Positions 38,122 through 49,783 of a DNA stretch of 64,000 bases are shown piece by piece. Both the position numbers and the translations under genes were made by a program. The notes below the pieces were generated by a model, which saw nothing but the letters and a program-made list of their open reading frames with translations, was not told the DNA's origin and did not search any database. The stretch lies in the IMG/VR virus record IMGVR_UViG_3300028833_000064, positions 96,001 through 160,000 of that record; one strand, written 5' to 3'. This stretch comes from a virus (taxonomy: Duplodnaviria; Caudoviricetes). Each line of letters starts with the position of its first letter. Within the stretch, counting starts at the first letter, position 1.

Positions 38122-38128
38122 TATTTTG

Positions 38129-38267
38129 CAGAAGTGGGAGGATTCGAACCACCATCTACGGTTTTGTGGTTAAATATCAATCTCTTGATAGATAACCTCG
38201 AATTAAAGGCTCTCACAGGACCTCACCCTGTATGGAGACCGTTATTCTACCATTGAACTACACTCCT
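38129..38267 (-). tRNA. tRNA-Trp(CCA) with a 68-nt anticodon-loop insertion
   Basis: ACGGT-CTCCA-[38232..38165]-AA-ACCGT, G73. Confidence 0.8.
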
Positions 38268-38547: not shown

Positions 38548-39132
38548 TTATTTTGTAATCTTCTTTCTAAAAAATCTCTTCGATTCTTTATTTAGAGAAC
38601 CAAAATTTTCTGTTAAACTATGACAATTTGGACATAATAATTCCAAGTTTTCTATCAAATTGTTTGTACAATCACCATCTTTATGATGAATCTCAAGAGG
38701 AACTGTGTTTGAATATTCATTCATCTCACCCCAACCACATTTTTCACAATGATTGTTGTGTAATTCCATCATATATCTTTTAATAAATTTTGGAATTTGA
38801 CCAACACCAGATTGAAAGTTTTCACCATTCAACCACCTTTTAACTCTCTCTTTATATTGATATTCACTTTGACAAACATTTGAACAAAATTTTTCACCTC
38901 TATTCAACTCTTTACCACAATTCAAACAATATCTTTTTTTACAATTGCCTTTATTGAAGGTTTCCTTTTCATTTATCTTTCGTCTTGTTTCAAGTTCAAT
39001 ACCAAGTTTCTTTGCAATCTTTTTGATATTGTTACCAGAACAACCATATATTCTTCCAATTTCGGAATAAGATTTCTTTTGAAATTGTATCAAATCTACG
39101 AGAGTATCTTTTTCATCGTCCCATTTACTCAT
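38548..39132 (-). CDS. HNH homing endonuclease with N-terminal HTH and zinc finger
   Basis: CEKCG...LEIHHKDG...NLELLCPNCH. Confidence 0.9.
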   Translation of the reverse strand: MSKWDDEKDTLVDLIQFQKKSYSEIGRIYGCSGNNIKKIAKKLGIELETRRKINEKETFNKGNCKKRYCLNCGKELNRGEKFCSNVCQSEYQYKERVKRWLNGENFQSGVGQIPKFIKRYMMELHNNHCEKCGWGEMNEYSNTVPLEIHHKDGDCTNNLIENLELLCPNCHSLTENFGSLNKESKRFFRKKITK

Positions 39133-39454: not shown

Positions 39455-39576
39455 AGCAGACGACAGGAGTCGAACCTGTAAAAGACTGTTTTTGAAAATT
39501 GCTGTTTTATTCTTTATCAGTCTTTACCAAGAATACTTCTACTGACAGTTGTGTTTACCAATTCCACCACGTCTGC
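39455..39576 (-). ncRNA. Leu(CAA)-like tRNA carrying a CAGCAA module
   Basis: Leu-type D arm, ACTGT/ACAGT stem, insert TATTCTT..AAGAATA-AAACAGCAA, then TTCAAAA; no long variable arm. Confidence 0.7.
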
Positions 39577-39584
39577 ATTGTTTG

Positions 39585-39666
39585 TGCCGAAGGTGGGACT
39601 CGAACCCACACCCCCTCACGGGGACTTGCTCCTAAGACAAGCGTGTCTGCATTCCACCACTTCGGC
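39585..39666 (-). tRNA. tRNA-Leu(TAG)
   Basis: Loop CTTAGGA, variable arm. Confidence 0.9.
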
Positions 39667-39673
39667 AAATTAG

Positions 39674-39847
39674 TGGAGTTATGTGGATTCGAACTTCATC
39701 TTCCAAACATCCATCAATGTTCCTTTGACAAATGTAAGGTCTGACGAAGGGGGAAAAGTTTTATAAAACCCCCACACCCTCTCCTGTAACAATTTTGTAC
39801 ACAACCATTACAGACAGCTTCCAGCCCGTTTAAGAGACCTTAACCCC
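39674..39847 (-). ncRNA. 174-nt RNA with an alanine-type acceptor stem
   Basis: GGGGTTA/TAACTCC-A with G3.U70, TTCGAAT loop. Confidence 0.5.
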
Positions 39848-39858
39848 GTTTTTTTTTG

Positions 39859-39930
39859 AGCAGGTGATGGTAATCGAAACCACATATCCAGCTTGGAAGG
39901 CTGGCATACTAACCATTGTACTACACCTGC
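39859..39930 (-). tRNA. tRNA-Gly(TCC)
   Basis: Loop CTTCCAA, U73. Confidence 0.9.
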
Positions 39931-39941
39931 TTGTTAAATAT

Positions 39942-40087
39942 ACAAGAACCAACCGGACTCGAACCGGCACTGACTGTCGTATTAAAACCTTTCGGTCTAC
40001 CGTCCTACATTTACAAGGGACTCACCCCTTTCCAGTACTCATACAATTCGTGGCGAGAGTATACCGATTCCCCCTCACAGTCCTTGT
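39942..40087 (-). ncRNA. tRNA-like RNA with expanded core
   Basis: Terminal helix ACAAGGACT/GGTTCTTGT, D-like loop, T arm GCCGG-TTCGAGT-CCGGT. Confidence 0.55.
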
Positions 40088-40094
40088 CTATTTG

Positions 40095-40171
40095 TGTTGC
40101 TGGTTGGATTCGAACCAACGACCTTCTGTGTATCAGACAGATGCTCTAAAAACCAACTGAGCTACAGCAAC
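40095..40171 (-). tRNA. tRNA-Ile(GAT)
   Basis: Loop CTGATAC. Confidence 0.88.
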
Positions 40172-40585
40172 ATTACATTACTCACCCAACCTGACATACA
40201 TTGGATTTGGATTATCAGCCGTTCCGTGAATGAAATCAAAATCTTCCATCAATTCTGCCATAATTGTTTTTGTTTAAAGGTTTAACATTAAAAATTTGTG
40301 CCTTCGTGGGTGCTGCCCCTAACTTTTCAGCCACATACCCTCTAACCGGTTCGGATTTATCACAACTTATTTCCGGATTTCCATTGTTATTCACCAAACC
40401 GTCGGGACCCCAAGCACTACTGCAGATGTCTTGAGGCTCTCGTCACTAACTTACGAGAATAAACCGGCATGTTAATACAGAGCCAAGTTGCTATCTTGGA
40501 ACGAATTTGTATGTTCTCACCTGGCGACCACAGCGACTCGCCTTCCAAAACAGTATCGTTATTGCATTTAACAACTTCTGTATAG

Positions 40586-40887
40586 TGGGCAGGGAGGGAC
40601 TTGAACCCCCAGAGTCCTTTCGGACAACAGATTTCAATGATATTGGTATCACTCGACTATGTAATTACCTTGCATTTCTGTTTAGGTACTCCGTATATAG
40701 TCTGTACACATTTATGAAGTTTCCTTCAATTTAGCTCGGCGTTGATTTGCTTTATTTTACGTGGTGCAAACTTTCACCGAATTAGCGGAGTTTTTCAATT
40801 TGCATTTCTACAAAAAGCTGCATTACCACGTGTAAACCAATTTTTAGTCAACAGTCTGTCCCGCTACCAATTACGGTTTACCTACCC
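40586..40887 (-). tRNA. tRNA-Tyr(GTA) split by a group I intron
   Basis: ACAGA-CTGT^AAA-TCTGT, long variable arm, A73. Confidence 0.9.
40635..40850 (-). mobile_element. group I intron (216 nt) in the tRNA-Tyr anticodon
   Basis: 5' exon ends in U, intron ends in G, P7 elements CAGACTA / CATAGTC. Confidence 0.85.
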
Positions 40888-40961
40888 ATTTAATTTATTT
40901 TATTTTTTTTTACCTTGTCCGTTTTTTCTTGGTTTATATATAGTTCTTCCGATTATTTTTG

Positions 40962-41035
40962 TGGGACCGAGCCGATTTGAACGGCTACCTCCAGATTTTC
41001 AGTCTGGCGTGACACACCAGTTACACCACAGTCCC
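40962..41035 (-). tRNA. tRNA-Phe(GAA)
   Basis: Loop CTGAAAA. Confidence 0.88.
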
Positions 41036-41070
41036 AATTTGAGGTTTTTGATGAACCTCTTAACATTTTG

Positions 41071-41192
41071 TCGGGAGGGCAGGACTCGAACCTACGACCA
41101 CGGCTACCCAAAAGCTATTAGAAAACGTTGCTGTTTGATTCTTTATCAAGAATCTATCATTTACGTGCTCTAACCAACTGAGCTACCTCCCG
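41071..41192 (-). tRNA. tRNA-Pro(TGG) with a 48-nt CAGCAA module at 28/29
   Basis: Removing 41116-41163 restores CGGCT-TTTGGGT-AGCCG. Confidence 0.85.
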
Positions 41193-41204
41193 TACTTAAA
41201 AAAA

Positions 41205-41292
41205 GCAGACCTGCTTACCAACTACTTGACCGAGGGCTGTCTCCCCTTTCGAGGGGCCTTCGTTGGTGGACTTGAACCACTCCAATATCTGC
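41205..41292 (-). ncRNA. circularly permuted tRNA-like RNA (YrlA-like order)
   Basis: GCAGA/TCTGC closing stem; T arm, then capped acceptor-like stem, then D-like loop. Confidence 0.55.
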
Positions 41293-41296
41293 CATT

Positions 41297-41364
41297 GTGA
41301 AATGTGATGGGACTTGAACCCATGACCTCCCCTCGGCGCTCTAACCACTGAGCTACACAATCAC
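41297..41364 (-). ncRNA. anticodon-armless tRNA mimic
   Basis: Perfect D and T arms joined by GCCGAGGGGAGGTC. Confidence 0.7.
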
Positions 41365-41516
41365 TTCCGAATCACACGGAATATGGTTCTTTTCAGTACC
41401 AATAACCTTGTTTCCACCACTTGGGTCAGGAACATACCCACGTCTATTACTACCAAGACGCCTAATCCCATCTTTTTTCTATCGCCCTTCAGGGAAAGGG
41501 CTTTCACATGTGAGAG

Positions 41517-41590
41517 TGGACCACGATGGGATTCGAACCCACGACTTTCTGACTGCCAGTCAGACGCTCTACCAACTGAGCTACGAGCCC
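41517..41590 (-). tRNA. tRNA-Ala(GGC)
   Basis: Loop CTGGCAG, G3.U70, 1-nt acceptor bulge. Confidence 0.85.
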
Positions 41591-41597
41591 ATGAAAA

Positions 41598-41688
41598 TTG
41601 AGTTGTTTAAGGTCTAACTCAAGACTAACGACCGGGGCGATTGTCATCGATTCCACCATCCGATTTTATATGACATCGGAAAACGTTA
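41598..41688 (-). repeat. structured direct repeat, copy A
   Basis: Shares both ends with 41812-41910. Confidence 0.8.
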
Positions 41689-41689
41689 G

Positions 41690-41808
41690 CGGAGAGAGTG
41701 GGACTCGAACCCACGACTACGGTCGTGACAGGACATTGAAAACATTGCTGTATGATTCTTTTTCAAGAATACTCTATTTACGTGTTCTACCAACTGAACT
41801 ATCTCTCC
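41690..41808 (-). tRNA. tRNA-Asp(GTC) with a 46-nt CAGCAA module at 28/29
   Basis: Removing 41735-41780 restores CGGTC-CTGTCAC-GACCG; G73. Confidence 0.85.
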
Positions 41809-41811
41809 GTT

Positions 41812-41910
41812 TTGAGTTGTTTAAAGTCCAACCCAAACGACTAGGGCTTGCCGGTTTGAATCCGACGAGCAGTTCCACCATCCGATTTTATCCGACATCG
41901 GAAAACGTTA
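41812..41910 (-). repeat. structured direct repeat, copy B
   Basis: Shares both ends with 41598-41688. Confidence 0.8.
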
Positions 41911-41973
41911 ACAAGAATCCATAGAATACAAAATTAAAAGTTTTGTCCTGATAATATTGCTGTACGATTCTTT
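41911..41973 (-). ncRNA. free-standing CAGCAA-module RNA enclosing a Lys-type anticodon stem-loop
   Basis: AAAGAATC-GTACAGCAA...ACAAAA-CTTTTAA-TTTTGT...GATTCTTGT. Confidence 0.75.
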
Positions 41974-41975
41974 AG

Positions 41976-42050
41976 TGGGGAATGAGGGACTCGAACCCCC
42001 GACTTTCTGAATGTAAGTCAGATACTCTGAACCGACTGAGTTAATTCCCC
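41976..42050 (-). tRNA. tRNA-Val(TAC)
   Basis: Loop CTTACAT. Confidence 0.9.
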
Positions 42051-42060
42051 GACATCTTAG

Positions 42061-42134
42061 TGGACACAGGTGGGAATCGAACCCACGACTACCTGTTTGC
42101 AAAACAGGAGTTCTACCAACTGAACTACTGGCCC
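42061..42134 (-). tRNA. tRNA-Ala(TGC)
   Basis: Loop TTTGCAA, 1-nt acceptor bulge. Confidence 0.85.
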
Positions 42135-42147
42135 AAATTAATATCAG

Positions 42148-42232
42148 TGCCCAAGACAGGACTTGAACCTGCACTCCCTAAACGGGAACCAGCCCCTCAA
42201 GCTGGTGTGTCTACCAATTCCACCACCTGGGC
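42148..42232 (-). tRNA. tRNA-Leu(GAG)
   Basis: Loop TTGAGGG, variable arm. Confidence 0.9.
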
Positions 42233-42248
42233 ATATTGCTTTCATTTG

Positions 42249-42320
42249 TTGTCCTATCAGGTTTCGAACCTAAAACTTCAGAGCCAGAATCTGACGTGTT
42301 ACCTATTATACCATAGGACA
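42249..42320 (-). tRNA. tRNA-Gln(CTG)
   Basis: Loop TTCTGGC. Confidence 0.88.
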
Positions 42321-42433
42321 ATTTTACAAAACCTAACCAAACCTTGATTAATGTCGTGAGCTTTGATTATACACACACGTCCGATTTCCACGGATATTTA
42401 CACTCTTAACCAGTTTGGTACCGGTTTTGTATG

Positions 42434-42504
42434 TTGTCCTACTTGGACTCGAACCCAGAATTCTTCATCCAAAATGAAGCGTGTTACCGTTACACCATAG
42501 GACA
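42434..42504 (-). tRNA. tRNA-Gln(TTG)
   Basis: Loop TTTTGGA. Confidence 0.88.
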
Positions 42505-42517
42505 ATGTTATCTCAAA

Positions 42518-42554
42518 TAAAAAATCTCACACTTTCGAAAGAATGTGTGAGATG
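42518..42554 (-). terminator. intrinsic terminator inside the tRNA array
   Basis: ATCTCACAC/GTGTGAGAT hairpin plus TTTTTT. Confidence 0.7.
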
Positions 42555-42741
42555 TTGGATATATGTTGAGATTAAAATGTGTTTCTAAAAAATCTTACAA
42601 ATGATACAAACAAATCACACAACTATGGACACAAATAGGATAATCGCCATCTGATAAAACCAGTAGACGAGTCCTGTTTTAAATCCCTTATGTTGTTTAT
42701 TTGTATTCATATCTTCGTTATTTATGTAAGTTTCTTTTCTA

Positions 42742-43278
42742 TTATTTATGTAAATTAATTTCGTATGGTTTTATTGAGCGTTTAACTCTTGCACCGCTTC
42801 CATACATAAGACTATCTGCAAGTGTATTTCCGACTTCTGGAAAACCATAACGTCTTTTGTTGTTTAACTGGTCAATATCTGGTTTAAGTTCCTTTATTTG
42901 TATAACTACGGAATACACAACCACTTTACTATTTGGATAACTCAACTCTCCGAAAGTTTTTGCAGAATCTGGATACACAGAAAGATATACATATCCACAT
43001 TCAGACTGAAAACTTTTTTTCCTTTTTAGACTTGTTGTCAAAATACCCTTATCCATTATAGGATTATTTTCACTTGTACCATGATAAAGTCTTATATAGT
43101 CTTCCTTGTGTCTTCTCAACCATCTGTTAAATTCATCAACAAGTTTTTCGTTATATTCACCATTGAATGAAGTGAAGAACTTAGAAGTTTCCTCATCATC
43201 TAAGACATCGTATGTCTTTGGTTCTCTATAACTACCATAGTATAATTCATTAATAAACTCATCAAACTTTTTAATCAT
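42742..43278 (-). CDS. ADP-ribosyltransferase-fold protein
   Basis: LYHGT...GI...GYVYLS...A..F. Confidence 0.6.
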   Translation of the reverse strand: MIKKFDEFINELYYGSYREPKTYDVLDDEETSKFFTSFNGEYNEKLVDEFNRWLRRHKEDYIRLYHGTSENNPIMDKGILTTSLKRKKSFQSECGYVYLSVYPDSAKTFGELSYPNSKVVVYSVVIQIKELKPDIDQLNNKRRYGFPEVGNTLADSLMYGSGARVKRSIKPYEINLHK

Positions 43279-43312
43279 ATTTCTGTTTGCTTTATTTATT
43301 TATGAATTTTTG

Positions 43313-43386
43313 TACTCCGGACGGGACTCGAACCCGTAATCTCCACCGTGAAAGGGTGGTGTCCTAACCAATTAGACGACCGGAGC
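43313..43386 (-). tRNA. tRNA-Glu(TTC)
   Basis: Loop CTTTCAC. Confidence 0.9.
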
Positions 43387-43453
43387 ATAGTTGTACCGAT
43401 ATCGCTCGATACGGGCGGGTGAAAAATCACCATCTTGCCAGGTCGGGTTTTTG

Positions 43454-43526
43454 TCGGGTAAAGAGGACTCGAACCTCCGACCCCTTGGTCCCAAACCAAG
43501 TGCTCTACCAACTGAGCTACTACCCG
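43454..43526 (-). tRNA. tRNA-Pro(TGG)
   Basis: Loop TTTGGGA. Confidence 0.92.
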
Positions 43527-44046
43527 ATTATTACTAAAGTGTGTTGTGAATGCACTTATAGTCTAACACATAACCTATTTCAGTGTATTCCAAAGCGAAT
43601 ATCTTTTTCAAATGCCGATAACCTCTCCCCACTATACTGCACATAAACGTATCAAGGGTTATTTAACACTGTGCTGTGTTGAGGTATCAAACACTATCAA
43701 GGACTAACCATTTGTGTGTTTTTCTTCACACCAACATCACTTTAGGGAAACATTCCTCTAACTATTCTTTCCCGTTCTCGGTCGCTTCCAATTCCGATAT
43801 TAGGTAGTTGTCTTACATCACCTGAACATCCGGTCGACAACGGGGCGAGCATAAATTTTCCGGATATCTTTTCCAAACTTTCATTGTTTATAGGAACAAC
43901 ATTTGGGTTTCGGGTTTCACTTATTCAGGCTCCGATTGAGTAATAATAGAGCGTGAACGTGAACATTTCATGTATATAATACTATAATTTCTCTGCCTAT
44001 AACACCTCGGATGAAAATTCCGAGCCCTATTCCTTATAGTATTTTG

Positions 44047-44119
44047 TGGACCCACTGGGAATCGAACCCAGACTTAAGGCTTGCAAAGCCCTCGTGCTTG
44101 CCGTTATCACTATAGGCCC
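44047..44119 (-). tRNA. tRNA-Ala(TGC)
   Basis: Loop TTTGCAA, G3.U70. Confidence 0.88.
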
Positions 44120-44185
44120 ATATAGAAAGACTTTTTGACACAAATTTCTCAAATCTGACTAAGAGAAGTAACAATGTTTGCATAC

Positions 44186-44345
44186 CAAGATTCTTTAACC
44201 CCCAAAGTGGGATTTTTCAAAATTTGTGCCGGACGGTCTTATCTTCGTCCAAGGGGTACAAACCGGAGAAAATTACCGGAGAAATACCGAGGTTAATTGA
44301 AACGTTTACTTTATGTATTTGTAAATCGTTGCTGTTTGAATCTTT
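44186..44345 (-). ncRNA. free-standing CAGCAA-module RNA, long cargo
   Basis: AAAGATTC-AAACAGCAA...GAATCTTG (compensatory stem). Confidence 0.7.
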
Positions 44346-44359
44346 AACAAACAATATTG

Positions 44360-44431
44360 AGCCGATGGAGGGATTTGAACCCCCGACCTGATGCTTACAA
44401 GGCAACTGCTCTACCCCTGAGCTACATCGGC
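44360..44431 (-). tRNA. tRNA-Thr(TGT)
   Basis: Loop CTTGTAA. Confidence 0.88.
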
Positions 44432-44435
44432 ATTT

Positions 44436-44497
44436 ACAAGGTTCACTTTTATGAGTCGAACATAATATAACCAAAAATAGTTGCTGTATGAACCTTT
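44436..44497 (-). ncRNA. free-standing CAGCAA-module RNA enclosing a T-arm
   Basis: AAAGGTTC-ATACAGCAA...TTATG-TTCGACT-CATAA...GAACCTTGT. Confidence 0.75.
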
Positions 44498-44549
44498 AAT
44501 TTAGTGAGCAATGAGCAGTCTCCCACTCAAAACCCAATTTCCTCTTTTG

Positions 44550-45325
44550 GAAAGCCTGAGAACTTAGGCAAAGTTGTCACCATTACACGATAGTTGGACA
44601 TCGTTGTTCACAGTATGTATTTCTACATCCTAGGTGACATGTGCTTCAGTTTTGTGAAAACTGACAAACTCTTACTGCTTGATATCGTAGATTTCCGTTC
44701 TCCACCGACCGTCCTGCATAAGACTTCTGAAGATGCCTCCTCATTGTTCGATGATTACTTGTACTTTCTTGTCTTCAACCTTGCAAGTCTCCGACACCCC
44801 CGTGTTACAGAGGGACAAGCACATTTTCTACCAAACAGTGTCGTGCTCTTTTGCTTTTTTTCAAAAATAAAAAATAATTGAATCTTAGCCTTTTTGATAA
44901 CTGTTTTTAGAAAGATGTGGCACGACTTTGGTCATTCCTACCTTTTGAGTAAGACCCAACCAACACCTTTCTATGTTTCATCGTTCCCCAACGACTCCAC
45001 ATTCTCCGTTTCGTTCCATACAATTTCTCATACAGAACTAATCCTTTGTAATACTTGCAATTGATAGGGAAATCTTTCACAAGTACCTGCTAAAGACATC
45101 TATTGTACTTTCATACTCAAACCAGGTTTTACCCGATTGTCATCTGCTTCATCCTCATCATTTGACATTGGATTTCCCACAGACAACGTGCCCTAGCACT
45201 TTTCAACAGATTGCATCTTTCGATACAACGCCACATCCCGTTTATCTCGGATATGACTTTATCCCATTGCTGGATTATCCTTTGGTCAAGTCCGAAGACT
45301 TAACACTGGTTCTGAAAGCGAACCT
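44550..45325 (-). ncRNA. candidate large structured ncRNA (GOLLD-sized)
   Basis: About 780 nt between tRNAs with no credible ORF and many hairpins; ends approximate. Confidence 0.45.
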
Positions 45326-45331
45326 TTTTTG

Positions 45332-45404
45332 TAGCGGGGGGTGGATTCGAACCACCGACCTTCGGGTTATGGGCCCGACGAGCTGGCCTCTGCTCCACCC
45401 CGCT
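45332..45404 (-). tRNA. initiator-type tRNA-Met(CAT)
   Basis: GGG/CCC in anticodon stem, loop CCCATAA. Confidence 0.85.
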
Positions 45405-45418
45405 ATGTTTCATTTTAG

Positions 45419-45491
45419 CGGGAACAGTAGGGTTCGAACCTACGACCATCACCTTAACAGGGTGCCGCTCTACCAGCTGAGCTATGTTCCC
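45419..45491 (-). tRNA. tRNA-Asn(GTT)
   Basis: Loop CTGTTAA. Confidence 0.88.
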
Positions 45492-45517
45492 AATTACCAA
45501 TACTTGTTACCAAACTA

Positions 45518-45597
45518 GCGGTACAAGAGGACTCGAACCTCTGGTCTCCAACGTCCGTAAGGTCGTTGACGTTCTTCCCCATTAAACTATGCACCTG
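45518..45597 (-). ncRNA. tRNA-like RNA with an extended anticodon arm
   Basis: TCAACG-A-CC-TTAC-GG-A-CGTTGG instead of a 5-bp stem and 7-nt loop. Confidence 0.6.
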
Positions 45598-45655
45598 GAC
45601 TTCCTATCATCATTGTGACTTGACCGGTATTCACAACTACTTTCAAAAATCTTAG

Positions 45656-45728
45656 CGGTCCATACGGGACTCGAACCCGTGTCGCCGCCGTGACAGGGCG
45701 GTATGCTAAACCACTACACCAATGGACC
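45656..45728 (-). tRNA. tRNA-Asp(GTC)
   Basis: Loop CTGTCAC. Confidence 0.9.
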
Positions 45729-45764
45729 ATTTCTATTTATGAAAAAGTTTTTTTAGGAAATTTT

Positions 45765-45837
45765 ACAAGGTTCACTTTTTTATCTTGGCATCTGAAATAT
45801 GGTTCGGATTAGATTTTTTATTGCTGTATGAACCTTT
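45765..45837 (-). ncRNA. free-standing CAGCAA-module RNA
   Basis: AAAGGTTC-ATACAGCAA...GAACCTTGT. Confidence 0.75.
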
Positions 45838-45845
45838 AAATGTGT

Positions 45846-45913
45846 ACAAGAATCTTTTCCTGAGTCATTCAAAAACACTGAATTTCATAGAAATTGTTGC
45901 TGTATGATTCTTT
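45846..45913 (-). ncRNA. free-standing CAGCAA-module RNA
   Basis: AAAGAATC-ATACAGCAA...GATTCTTGT. Confidence 0.75.
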
Positions 45914-46006
45914 ATCTACACGATTTCCTTATTTATTATTTTTCCCTAACAATATAAATATAACAAAAAATTCAAGAAATTTTAATTTTTTTGAATTTTT
46001 TTTTTG

Positions 46007-46078
46007 AGCAGATGAGCAGAATCGAACCGCCATCTCCAGCTTGGCAAGCTGATGCACTAACCATTGTGCTACATCTGC
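46007..46078 (-). tRNA. tRNA-Gly(GCC)
   Basis: Loop TTGCCAA. Confidence 0.88.
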
Positions 46079-46086
46079 ATAAAAAG

Positions 46087-46173
46087 CGGAGAGGGAGGGA
46101 TTCGAACCCCCGGAGGCTGTTACACCCCAACGGTTTTCAAGACCGCCACCATAAGCCACTCGGCCACCTCTCC
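46087..46173 (-). tRNA. tRNA-Ser(TGA)
   Basis: Loop CTTGAAA, variable arm, G73. Confidence 0.92.
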
Positions 46174-46298
46174 AATTGTCGTTTCTGTCTTTGTTGCAGA
46201 AGACTAACGACTGTGTGGAAACTGTCTCCTGACATACGATGCAACTCTACGTATATCTACTGAACGTGATGACAACCACAATCCTTCACGTGAATTTG

Positions 46299-46417
46299 TC
46301 GGGTGGAGGGGAATCGAACCCACTGTCACGGCTACCAAAAAGCAAAGAACGTATTGCTGCAAGATTCTTTCACAAGAATCAAATAAATACGTGTCCTAAC
46401 CACTAGACGACCACCCA
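46299..46417 (-). tRNA. tRNA-Gln(TTG) with a 46-nt CAGCAA module at 28/29
   Basis: Removing 46344-46389 restores CGGCT-TTTTGGT-AGCCG. Confidence 0.83.
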
Positions 46418-46889: not shown

Positions 46890-47225
46890 ACCATCGTTTT
46901 GGTACGATGGTGAGAACCTGCCCTTAAAGACATTGGTCTAAACTACCACCGATTAGGCGGCAGCGAGCATCACCATGTTATTGGTGTTGTTATTGTAGTT
47001 GCCATTTACTGACAAGATGAGTCTCTACACCTTTCATACTTATACAGTATCAAATCCAAGTCATCCCCGTGTTACCTTGGCGGTTCGGTCTCGTATAGAC
47101 CGCCCAAGGTTGAGTGTTCTGCTATTTGTATCGGACTTACAATTGATACCGAAGTCAGGGCGAACACTGAATAAACTGGTGGAGATGTTGGGGTTCGAAC
47201 CCAAGTCTACCATACTTTCCTAAAA
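46890..47225 (-). ncRNA. ssrA: circularly permuted (two-piece) tmRNA
   Basis: T arm plus CATCTCC-A-CCA (ends 47177) lies upstream of 5' GGGGATG (47068); tag GNYNNNTNNMVMLAAA* at 47003-46953; outer ends approximate. Confidence 0.88.
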
Positions 47226-47245
47226 GTTTCAAACGAAACCCATTT

Positions 47246-47744: not shown

Positions 47745-47756
47745 GATTATGTTTTG

Positions 47757-48093
47757 TACTCCGAGTGGGACTTGAACCCACACGCCCTTTCGGGCAACAA
47801 ATTTTCATACCACACTTACTTTTACATAAGCCATCTACTTGAGATGTTGTAGTCTGGACTATTTCTTAACCATGCCTTTCGGTTTAGGTCTCCACCTATA
47901 TAGTCTCTACGCCATTTACACATTTCTGTGCTTTAGAGAGTCATCGCCAAAGATTATGTCACCACAATCGAGGTTTCTGTTTGTTAGGGCAGATTCTACA
48001 TCCCAACAATTAATCTTGTTGTTTTCTCTTTTCAGAAATGGATGCACTCTTTTTTATCAAAGTCTGTCGTGTCTACCATTCCACCACCGGAGC
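47757..48093 (-). tRNA. tRNA-Leu(TAA) split by a group I intron
   Basis: ACAGA-CTT^AAAA-TTTGT, variable arm. Confidence 0.9.
47806..48059 (-). mobile_element. group I intron (254 nt) in tRNA-Leu(UAA)
   Basis: Inserted after U34, terminal G, P7 elements GAGACTA / AATAGTC. Confidence 0.85.
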
Positions 48094-49607: not shown

Positions 49608-49698
49608 AGTATTTATCCTTAGTGTTATATACTTCGGATAAAACTAGAATTATAAATTTCGTGATTCATTTTTTTTACTTTTTAAACGTTAATATTTG

Positions 49699-49783
49699 TG
49701 CCCAAGGTGGGACTCGAACCCACACCCCCTCAACGAGGACAACATTTTGAGTGTTGAGTGTCTACCAATTCCACCACTTGGAC
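49699..49783 (-). tRNA. tRNA-Leu(CAA)
   Basis: Loop CTCAAAA, variable arm. Confidence 0.9.

Follow-up and report, generated by a model that had tools for sequence, protein, structure and literature searches.

A CAGCAA handle module in a phage tRNA array and its association with a predicted Ro60-fold DUF2828 protein

A 64,000-nucleotide (nt) stretch of a Caudoviricetes genome (IMG/VR record IMGVR_UViG_3300028833_000064), referred to below as the window, was analyzed for a repeated RNA module that is dispersed through a tRNA array. The window comprises bases 96001-160000 of one 185-kb viral record, which was estimated to be 63% complete and for which no close relative was found among deposited phages. 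Feature coordinates are window positions, and all copies of the module in the window lie on the minus strand. The array occupies the minus strand from 37 to 51 kb and contains 36 tRNA genes called by ARAGORN, with two RNA ligases, a polynucleotide kinase and a CCA-adding enzyme encoded 5-14 kb off. The module, hereafter called the handle, is composed of a 7-base-pair (bp) helix, three unpaired bases and a single-stranded CAGCAA, with a G following the 3' helix strand. Nine paired copies were located at 39455-46417 (Table 1). A sequence-only reading of the window had described nine copies of helix, NNN and CAGCAA, their helix variants with a terminal mismatch in the copy at 41690, and two circular permutations. 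The copies and their places were confirmed by sequence reading and a motif scan of the genome, as were the covarying helices and the mismatch, which is a T/C pair, and both permutations proved to be real, five copies being free-standing and four lying inside tRNA-like genes.

In the free-standing copies, the 5' helix strand is followed by NNN, CAGCAA, a variable cargo, the 3' helix strand and G. In the embedded copies, the 3' partner strand comes first and is followed by a loop, the 5' strand, NNN and CAGCAA, and both strands form a hairpin just ahead of NNN-CAGCAA. Across the nine copies the helices were AAGAATC/GATTCTT, AAGGTTC/GAACCTT, AAGATTC/GAATCTT and AAGAATA/TATTCTT. When the whole 185-kb genome was scanned for AAG..T. 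followed by 2-4 nt and CAGCAA, 10 matches fell within 7 kb of the minus strand and 2 elsewhere. CAGCAA alone occurred 27 times in the window, compared with 16.3 ± 4.1 in shuffled sequences. The tenth CAGCAA copy belongs to an orphan half-module, which may be degenerate or a chance match; no convincing 3' partner was found out to 1300 nt, the only candidates containing two G-U pairs. A GOLLD-like RNA, sub-threshold in Rfam, lies among the handle RNAs, and the idea that GOLLD is the cargo of the copy at 45282 found no support in the partner search.

Table 1. Handle copies and other features of the array and of related loci. Positions refer to the window unless another locus is named.
Feature	Position	Strand	Handle	Further details
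tRNA-Gln(UUG)-like, embedded handle	46299-46417	minus	GATTCTT 46380-46374, loop GTGA, AAGAATC 46369-46363, TTG, CAGCAA 46359-46354	Insert in 5' anticodon-stem strand; removal after position 28 gives stem CGGCT/AGCCG and loop TTTTGGT (Gln UUG); intact Gln-UUG twin 42433-42504
tRNA-Asp(GUC)-like, embedded handle	41690-41808	minus	TATTCTT 41771-41765, GAAA, AAGAATC 41760-41754, ATA, CAGCAA 41750-41745	Terminal T/C mismatch; Rfam tRNA 48.3 bits, 61-nt insert in alignment; excision after 28 gives CGGTC-CTGTCAC-GACCG; intact Asp-GUC twin 45655-45728
tRNA-Pro(UGG)-like, embedded handle	41071-41192	minus	GATTCTT 41154-41148, GATA, AAGAATC 41143-41137, AAA, CAGCAA 41133-41128	Rfam tRNA 45.3 bits; excision after 28 gives CGGCT-TTTGGGT-AGCCG (Pro UGG); intact Pro-UGG twin 43453-43526; near-identical copy in related phage locus L086
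tRNA-Leu(CAA)-like, embedded handle	39455-39576	minus	TATTCTT 39535-39529, 14-nt loop, AAGAATA 39514-39508, AAA, CAGCAA 39504-39499	Rfam tRNA 46.9 bits; handle at 31/32, between 5' stem strand and anticodon loop; TTCAAAA loop 2 nt after CAGCAA; stem ACTGT/ACAGT; ARAGORN (introns allowed) Leu-CAA with 48-nt insert; intact Leu-CAA twin 49698-49783
Free-standing handle RNA	45846-45915	minus	AAGAATC-ata-CAGCAA, 42-nt cargo, GATTCTT-G	Terminal helix in minimum-energy fold; covariance model R1 44.8 bits (seed member)
Free-standing handle RNA	45765-45839	minus	AAGGTTC-ata-CAGCAA, 47-nt cargo, GAACCTT-G	Fold z-score -2.56; R1 43.6 bits
Free-standing handle RNA	44436-44499	minus	AAGGTTC-ata-CAGCAA, 36-nt cargo, GAACCTT-G	Fold z-score -2.53; R1 43.1 bits; T-arm-like hairpin TTATG-TTCGACT-CATAA in cargo; RNA end a few nt ahead of tRNA-Thr
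Free-standing handle RNA	44186-44347	minus	AAGATTC-aaa-CAGCAA, 135-nt cargo, GAATCTT-G	Non-tRNA cargo; begins 15 nt past tRNA-Thr; homologue with shorter cargo in L086
Free-standing handle RNA	41911-41975	minus	AAGAATC-gta-CAGCAA, 37-nt cargo, GATTCTT-G	Begins 2-3 nt past tRNA-Val; R1 47 bits; tRNA-Lys(UUU)-type anticodon stem-loop ACAAAA-CTTTTAA-TTTTGT in cargo
Orphan half-module	45267-45282	minus	AAGGATA-atc-CAGCAA	
Eleventh, minimal copy	outside window, 22 nt before DUF2828 ATG, in gene leader		AAGATTC, ttga (4-nt spacer), CAGCAA, 14-nt cargo, GAATCTT, G	
GOLLD-like RNA	44553-44971	minus		85 bits, E 3e-21 (gathering score 150)
tRNA-Trp(CCA)	38128-38267	minus		
Permuted two-piece tmRNA	46953-47239	minus		Rfam RF04321, 68 bits
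tRNA-Ser(UGA)	47756-48093	minus		ARAGORN, introns allowed
HNH endonuclease with zinc ribbon	38548-39132	minus		
178-amino-acid open reading frame	42742-43278	minus		
Odd tRNA-like gene	41299-41362	minus		64 nt
Odd tRNA-like gene	45518-45596	minus		
T-arm and acceptor 3' ends	~40590-40910, 39945-40060, 39675-39830	minus		By eye
SmpB gene	L115:2254-2751	minus		~370 nt upstream of DUF2828 gene
ROOL-like RNA, Listeria phage LP-125	L199:3474-4025			87 bits (below 99)
DUF2828 gene and following genes, gut-phage lineage	L128:6601-11206			

According to Rfam, all four embedded copies are tRNAs with an insert in the anticodon arm. Excision in silico was performed with a search anchored on the T loop, brute-force excision followed by ARAGORN having been dropped as too permissive. 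In the Asp, Pro and Gln genes, cutting out 46-48 nt after position 28 produced a perfect 5-bp stem and a 7-nt loop. Because all four have an intact twin with the same anticodon in the array, the embedded tRNAs are dispensable for decoding. In other phages, embedded copies were found to break the tRNA at 28/29, 29/30 or 31/32, with the anticodons Asn-GUU (five times), Thr, Pro, Leu and others; many of them were restored on excision and several were not, and several had degenerate or absent anticodon loops.

A candidate protein partner is encoded outside the window, at about 23.4-25.0 kb of the record. This genome has one DUF2828+DUF7788 (vWA) protein of 521 amino acids, belonging to phrog_850, for which Pfam PF11443 and PF25043 were matched; no match to Pfam TROVE (PF05731) was found in this genome. 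A single-sequence search of solved structures with the DUF2828 protein found nothing. An AlphaFold model of it (predicted local distance difference test, pLDDT, 79.5) was submitted to Foldseek, and full-length matches to Ro60 over about 520 columns were obtained: 9kop, the Ro60 of phage phiLo (E 6.7e-10, TM 0.58/0.64), 9l5y, Xenopus 1yvr and Deinococcus 2nvo, the vWA domains being matched separately as well. By this model, the protein is predicted to adopt the Ro60 fold, in which a HEAT-repeat ring (TROVE ring) is followed by a vWA domain. The family is large, with more than 7000 relatives in the protein search and 706 cultured phage records by tblastn, including FelixO1-like, Listeria, Staphylococcus, Campylobacter and mycobacterial phages, and the genes often stand inside or beside tRNA arrays. 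Its members include FelixO1 ORF86, Bas63 gp130, LP-125 gp078 and LeBron gp53. In one gut-phage lineage (L128), the DUF2828 gene is followed by DnaJ-like, adenylosuccinate-synthetase-like and SPASM-domain genes. Literature searches returned no relevant paper on the function of DUF2828. The Ro60-like protein gp130 of phage Bas63, encoded upstream of tRNA genes, is reported to counter the Ppl defence system, and the authors of that preprint guess that some of the "tRNAs" there may be Y RNAs (10.1101/2024.10.10.617714).

The eleventh, minimal copy of the handle is located in the leader of the DUF2828 gene itself. A leader hairpin is kept in the relatives L116 (5942-5979) and L118 (4940-4979), again 22 nt from the start and with a covarying helix and a 4-nt spacer, and its cores there are looser (CAGCAG and CAGCGG), as would be expected of a weaker operator copy.

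The linkage of handle and gene was then traced across phages. When viral contigs were scanned blind for the pattern AAAGAATCNNACAGCAA, 113 loci were obtained, nearly all of them chance single matches; five loci from four contigs were real, and DUF2828 was encoded by all four of these module-bearing contigs. A provirus match (L004), with a 13-nt loop followed by terminator-like sequence and without a DUF2828 gene, was dropped as a chance match. In L042, three tandem free-standing handles stand directly ahead of the DUF2828 gene, with the helices AAGAACG, AAGAATC and AAGAACC and their matching partners, and two of the three cargos are complete circularly permuted tRNAs (3' half, linker of 2-5 nt, 5' half) with the module halves at their ends. 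In L117, whose protein is 29% identical, eight handles lie upstream of the gene and complete permuted tRNAs were again found; one permuted tRNA among these two loci has an encoded CCA.

An alignment-based search identified 452 viral loci with a DUF2828 gene, of which 80 were kept (a single-protein search had reached only two relatives). At least one module was present on the gene strand in 72 of the 80 loci. Modules numbered 294 on the gene strand and 35 on the opposite strand, against 60 and 54 in about 1 Mb of background; when a perfect 7-bp helix and the trailing G were required, the counts became 115 and 1, with 2-3 in the same amount of background. The 3-nt spacer and CAGCAA each stood out over control spacers and hexamers. 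The consensus module sets were partly picked for a perfect helix, a choice of which the strand and background contrasts are free. The pairing of handle and DUF2828 gene is widespread, occurring in hundreds of phages. The sequence-only reading had suggested a tabulation of TROVE/Ro60 and DUF2828-like genes, and this gave a positive result. A covariance model, R1, with 43 short modules from diverse phages as its basis, was applied to 28 unseen loci (E <= 0.01), where 40 matches were obtained on the gene strand and none on the opposite one. CAGCAA was present in 38 of the 40, and their helices contained 266 Watson-Crick pairs, 14 G-U pairs, no A-C pairs and no mismatches.

These results bear on whether the module acts as DNA (a promoter, a terminator, a site of recombination or a miniature mobile element, for example) or else as a small self-cleaving ribozyme. 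A short inverted repeat with a conserved hexamer in many copies would suit such an element, and the two arrangements are of a kind that recombination could produce. Nevertheless, the strand bias was strict, in all 40 R1 matches and in the 115 against 1 perfect modules, and the sole non-Watson-Crick pairs were G-U on the gene strand; G-U without A-C on one strand argues for pairing in RNA rather than a DNA site, although in the pattern-based set of single-mismatch helices the contrast (31 G-U, 19 A-C) was weakly discriminating. No target-site duplications were seen, no ribozyme family was matched at E up to 1, and a 7-bp helix with six conserved bases is far below the needs of any known self-cleaver. 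An action as DNA or as a ribozyme was thus considered very improbable.

A copy ended within 260 nt upstream of the start codon in 49 of 82 loci, often with a cargo of 10-19 nt. Salmonella phage FelixO1 has four handles downstream of the gene, one of them with a permuted tRNA-like cargo. In Listeria phage LP-125, three handles stand upstream of the gene and RtcB and RNA ligase genes are nearby, and Mycobacterium phage LeBron has three handles downstream, with few or no tRNAs near. CAGCAA was intact in all three phages. A ROOL-like RNA was observed just upstream of the handles and the DUF2828 gene in LP-125. The helix and CAGCAA might instead form a general processing or stability element of the array transcript, serving as the site of a host RNase or of a phage protein other than DUF2828, with proximity to the DUF2828 gene reflecting shared placement in tRNA and RNA-repair islands. 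Copies abutting tRNA ends and the frequent location of DUF2828 genes in or beside tRNA arrays would fit, and the Class I RNAs of dictyostelids, which have the same architecture, have an RRM protein as their one proven direct binder (PMC7919456). This explanation was judged unlikely, given that handles accompany the gene even where tRNAs are few or none, as in LeBron, that a minimal copy stands in the gene's own leader in several lineages, and that the four module-bearing contigs of the blind scan all have the gene. Moreover, CAGCAA is nearly invariant across hosts of at least three phyla, which speaks against a site for an RNase specific to the host.

The cargos were compared as a set of 152 unique sequences. 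Anticodon-arm-like hairpins, defined by a 7-nt loop with U at loop position 2 (U33) and a purine at 6 (37), were present in 75 of them, compared with a mean of 26.6 and a maximum of 40 in shuffles. The commonest cargo loop, CTTTTAA, is the anticodon loop of tRNA-Lys(UUU) and was found in 11 cargos against 0.04 expected, and 26 cargos contained T-arm-like hairpins. Thus the cargo is enriched in tRNA parts. The permuted tRNAs of L042, L117, L198 and L200 show the order T arm, acceptor hairpin, D arm, as in YrlA.

We also considered whether the module is a small protein-dependent tRNA intron, or the processing signal of permuted tRNA genes, with the Ro60-like protein as a cofactor at most. An endonuclease would cleave on either side of the handle, and the exons would be joined by the phage polynucleotide kinase and RNA ligases; the embedded copies would give rise to mature tRNAs, and the permuted ones to circles, either as intermediates or as small RNAs. 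Several observations are in line with this: excision leaves perfect 5-bp stems and 7-nt loops with U33 and purine 37, in three window copies at 28/29 and in one at 31/32; the same restoration is seen in many other phages (Asn-GUU five times, Thr, Pro, Leu); complete permuted tRNAs with module halves at their ends occur in L042 and L117, one with an encoded CCA; and the ligases, kinase and CCA-adding enzyme lie close to the array. The array also includes a tRNA-Trp(CCA) whose anticodon loop is split by about 68 nt at the canonical position without a CAGCAA handle, and no intact tRNA-Trp was called in the window; its insert could be a true intervening sequence belonging to an unfamiliar small type.

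Against an intron, handle-to-junction distances vary from 6 to 16 nt upstream and from 2 to 14 nt downstream, the junction itself varies among 26/27, 28/29, 29/30 and 31/32, and no conserved pairing or bulge-helix-bulge was seen by eye around the junctions. An early reading, in which a 5' junction ACGT pairs with the bases after CAGCA, was abandoned, since other phages do not conserve this pairing. The anticodon loop is degenerate or missing in several embedded copies, most free-standing cargos are hairpins of 14-50 nt that would close into circles too small to be plausible, each of the four window copies has an intact twin, and the leader copy ahead of the DUF2828 gene has no exon logic. No EndA-type endonuclease (PF01974), RtcB or Tpt1 was found in the record, itself an estimated 63% complete, and a host enzyme is possible. 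Taken together, an intron or processing signal seems rather unlikely. Similarly doubtful, at a slightly lower probability, is a combined arrangement in which the embedded and permuted copies are true intervening sequences, a Ro60-like particle marks the site, a nuclease makes a cut on either side, and the ends are resealed by the phage kinase and ligases. If this were true, phages of bacteria would possess protein-dependent tRNA splicing and circularisation, analogous to the archaeal bulge-helix-bulge system, that yields mature tRNAs and small circular RNAs.

The sequence-only reading had not recognised the module as a named family, and no Rfam family covers it. Between 37 and 51 kb, Rfam at E up to 1 reported only tRNA, tmRNA (transfer-messenger RNA) and the sub-threshold GOLLD; in 15 related loci it reported only tRNA, tmRNA, ROOL and a weak YrlA match. 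The pairing of handle and DUF2828 was not found in Rfam or in the papers open to search, and literature searches on permuted or interrupted phage tRNAs returned nothing relevant. The YrlA model (RF02553) matched no window module at E up to 1. It scored one LeBron module at 39.8 bits, against a threshold of 69, aligning the T arm, acceptor hairpin and D arm and leaving the handle outside or misaligned.

The Ro60-binding motif of animal Y RNAs, on the 5' strand, is GGUCCGA. Y RNAs adjoin Ro60 genes and mimic tRNA, and the Ro60-binding motif of YrlA is GNCGAAN0-1G (Chen et al. 2014, PMC4201824); the Thermus phage phiLo carries Ro60 with Yrl1/2 (PMC12135203). The handle RNAs share with this system small RNAs, often in several copies, that lie beside and on the strand of a gene for a ring-plus-vWA protein, RNA ends that base-pair with each other, a conserved unpaired motif beside the 5' strand of that helix, and linked RNA-repair genes. 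In both, the remainder of the RNA mimics tRNA in the permuted order of T arm, acceptor hairpin and D arm, the equivalent in the window being four complete tRNA bodies and isolated tRNA parts. They differ in the motif, which in the handle is CAGCAA 3 nt past the helix, and in the partner, which is assigned by Pfam to DUF2828/DUF7788 and not to TROVE. Furthermore, the handle cargo is far more varied (anticodon stem-loops, T arms, 14-nt loops), and the handle also occurs as an insert in tRNAs that are otherwise complete and have normal ends, and has a copy in the mRNA leader of the protein itself.

Dictyostelid Class I RNAs are 42-65 nt long; a short stem joins their ends, an 11-nt motif predicted to be unpaired lies by the 5' stem strand, and the rest is variable (PMC7919456). 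Positions T3, C6, C9, A10 and A11 of the motif are invariant (Kjellin et al. 2021, PMC7919456). These RNAs are reported to occur in Dictyostelia only and to function in development, and their known direct binder is the RRM protein Rnp1A (PMC7919456). The architecture of terminal stem and motif is alike, and C6, C9, A10 and A11 fit CAGCAA at 6-11 in a comparison made by description only. The invariant T3 is not kept in the window copies, and the Class I genes are eukaryotic, have their own promoter element, and have no described link to a Ro60-like protein. The 11-nt motif is reportedly CCUUACAGCAA.

Archaeal and algal tRNA introns and permuted tRNA genes are processed at bulge-helix-bulge motifs. 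They resemble the present copies in having non-canonical inserts in the anticodon arm, and a 3' half ahead of the 5' half with the insert halves at the ends. The handle copies differ in lacking a bulge-helix-bulge and an EndA gene, in their variable junction distances and in their mostly non-tRNA cargos. Two-piece tmRNA (RF04321) is likewise tRNA-related and circularly permuted in gene order, and is found in the phage tRNA array, but its sequence is unrelated, it has no CAGCAA handle, and its partner is SmpB. One such permuted two-piece tmRNA is present in this same array, and SmpB is encoded by the same phage, upstream of the DUF2828 gene.

On balance, the module is probably the docking handle of a set of small RNAs, some of them whole tRNAs, that partner a phage Ro60 paralogue (DUF2828/DUF7788, phrog_850). 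The sequence-only reading had proposed a Y-RNA analogue, a handle to which a protein binds and by which tRNA parts are presented; this proposal is supported by the gene with a predicted Ro60 fold, the leader copy, the clustering on one strand and the cargo enrichment. We infer that the DUF2828 protein binds the handle RNAs; on this reading they are Y-RNA-like partners and form a new branch of the Ro60/Y-RNA particle, not a wholly new kind. As to the further proposal that the module works with the phage RNA-repair enzymes, its link to the RNA ligases is one of gene neighbourhood.

With the module as a docking handle, the tRNA array would be transcribed as long precursors, from which RNase P and the 3' tRNA-processing enzymes would free the standalone RNAs, and the handle helix would then close their ends as in Y RNAs. 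The ring-shaped DUF2828 protein would bind the handle, and the variable cargo (a Lys-UUU-type anticodon stem-loop, a T arm or another hairpin) could be displayed as a tether or decoy for tRNA-recognising enzymes, either repair and processing enzymes or host anticodon nucleases. In the embedded copies, a complete L-shaped tRNA would be displayed, from whose anticodon stem the handle would project as a side arm. Through the weaker leader copy, the DUF2828 protein might feed back on its own synthesis.

Several points weigh against the docking reading. Linkage by neighbourhood could reflect co-regulation or another binding protein, and the handle matches neither GNCGAAN0-1G nor the Rfam YrlA model. 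About 110 kb separate the nine window copies from the DUF2828 gene, to which the leader copy alone is adjacent. In L118-L122, no 3-nt-spacer handle was found within 5 kb of the gene; a scan of leaders recovered the variant hairpin with a 4-nt spacer in L116 and L118 and none in L119-L122. Covariation counts on alignment A2 are circular and were not relied on, because a perfect helix had been the criterion for selecting its rows. Removal of the insert exactly restores the anticodon arm in three embedded copies, which is unneeded if the handle is purely a side arm, and the tRNA-Trp gene, with its insert and no twin, indicates that a pathway for removing inserts may exist in the phage or its host.

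Other irregular genes were observed in the array. A tRNA-Ser(UGA) with a 244-nt insert was called, and no group I intron was reported by Rfam at this position. An HNH endonuclease with a zinc ribbon is encoded within the array, as is a 178-amino-acid open reading frame with a YHGTS motif, which matched nothing in Pfam or PHROG; among named Atlas clusters, those closest to it are ADP-ribosyltransferases (Arr, DarT/PARP; scores 0.89-0.90), which is a lead only. One odd tRNA-like gene (41299-41362) apparently has no anticodon arm, and in another (45518-45596) the anticodon arm is replaced by a 6-bp stem with a 12-nt loop. At three places, T-arm and acceptor 3' ends follow 100-250 nt of noncoding, apparently structured RNA, and at the first of them, at about 40590-40910, a matching 5' acceptor strand lies about 300 nt upstream, resembling a tRNA with a large insert.

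If the handle RNAs are ligands of the DUF2828 protein, DUF2828/phrog_850, a very large protein family of unassigned function, gains a defined candidate RNA ligand, a 7-bp helix with a 3-nt spacer and CAGCAA, together with a candidate biology of arrays displaying tRNA parts and of handle-bearing whole tRNAs. The Ro60/Y-RNA theme would be extended to a second family of proteins, one that uses an RNA code of its own, and the Class I RNAs of social amoebas, which lack an explanation, might also be accounted for in this way.

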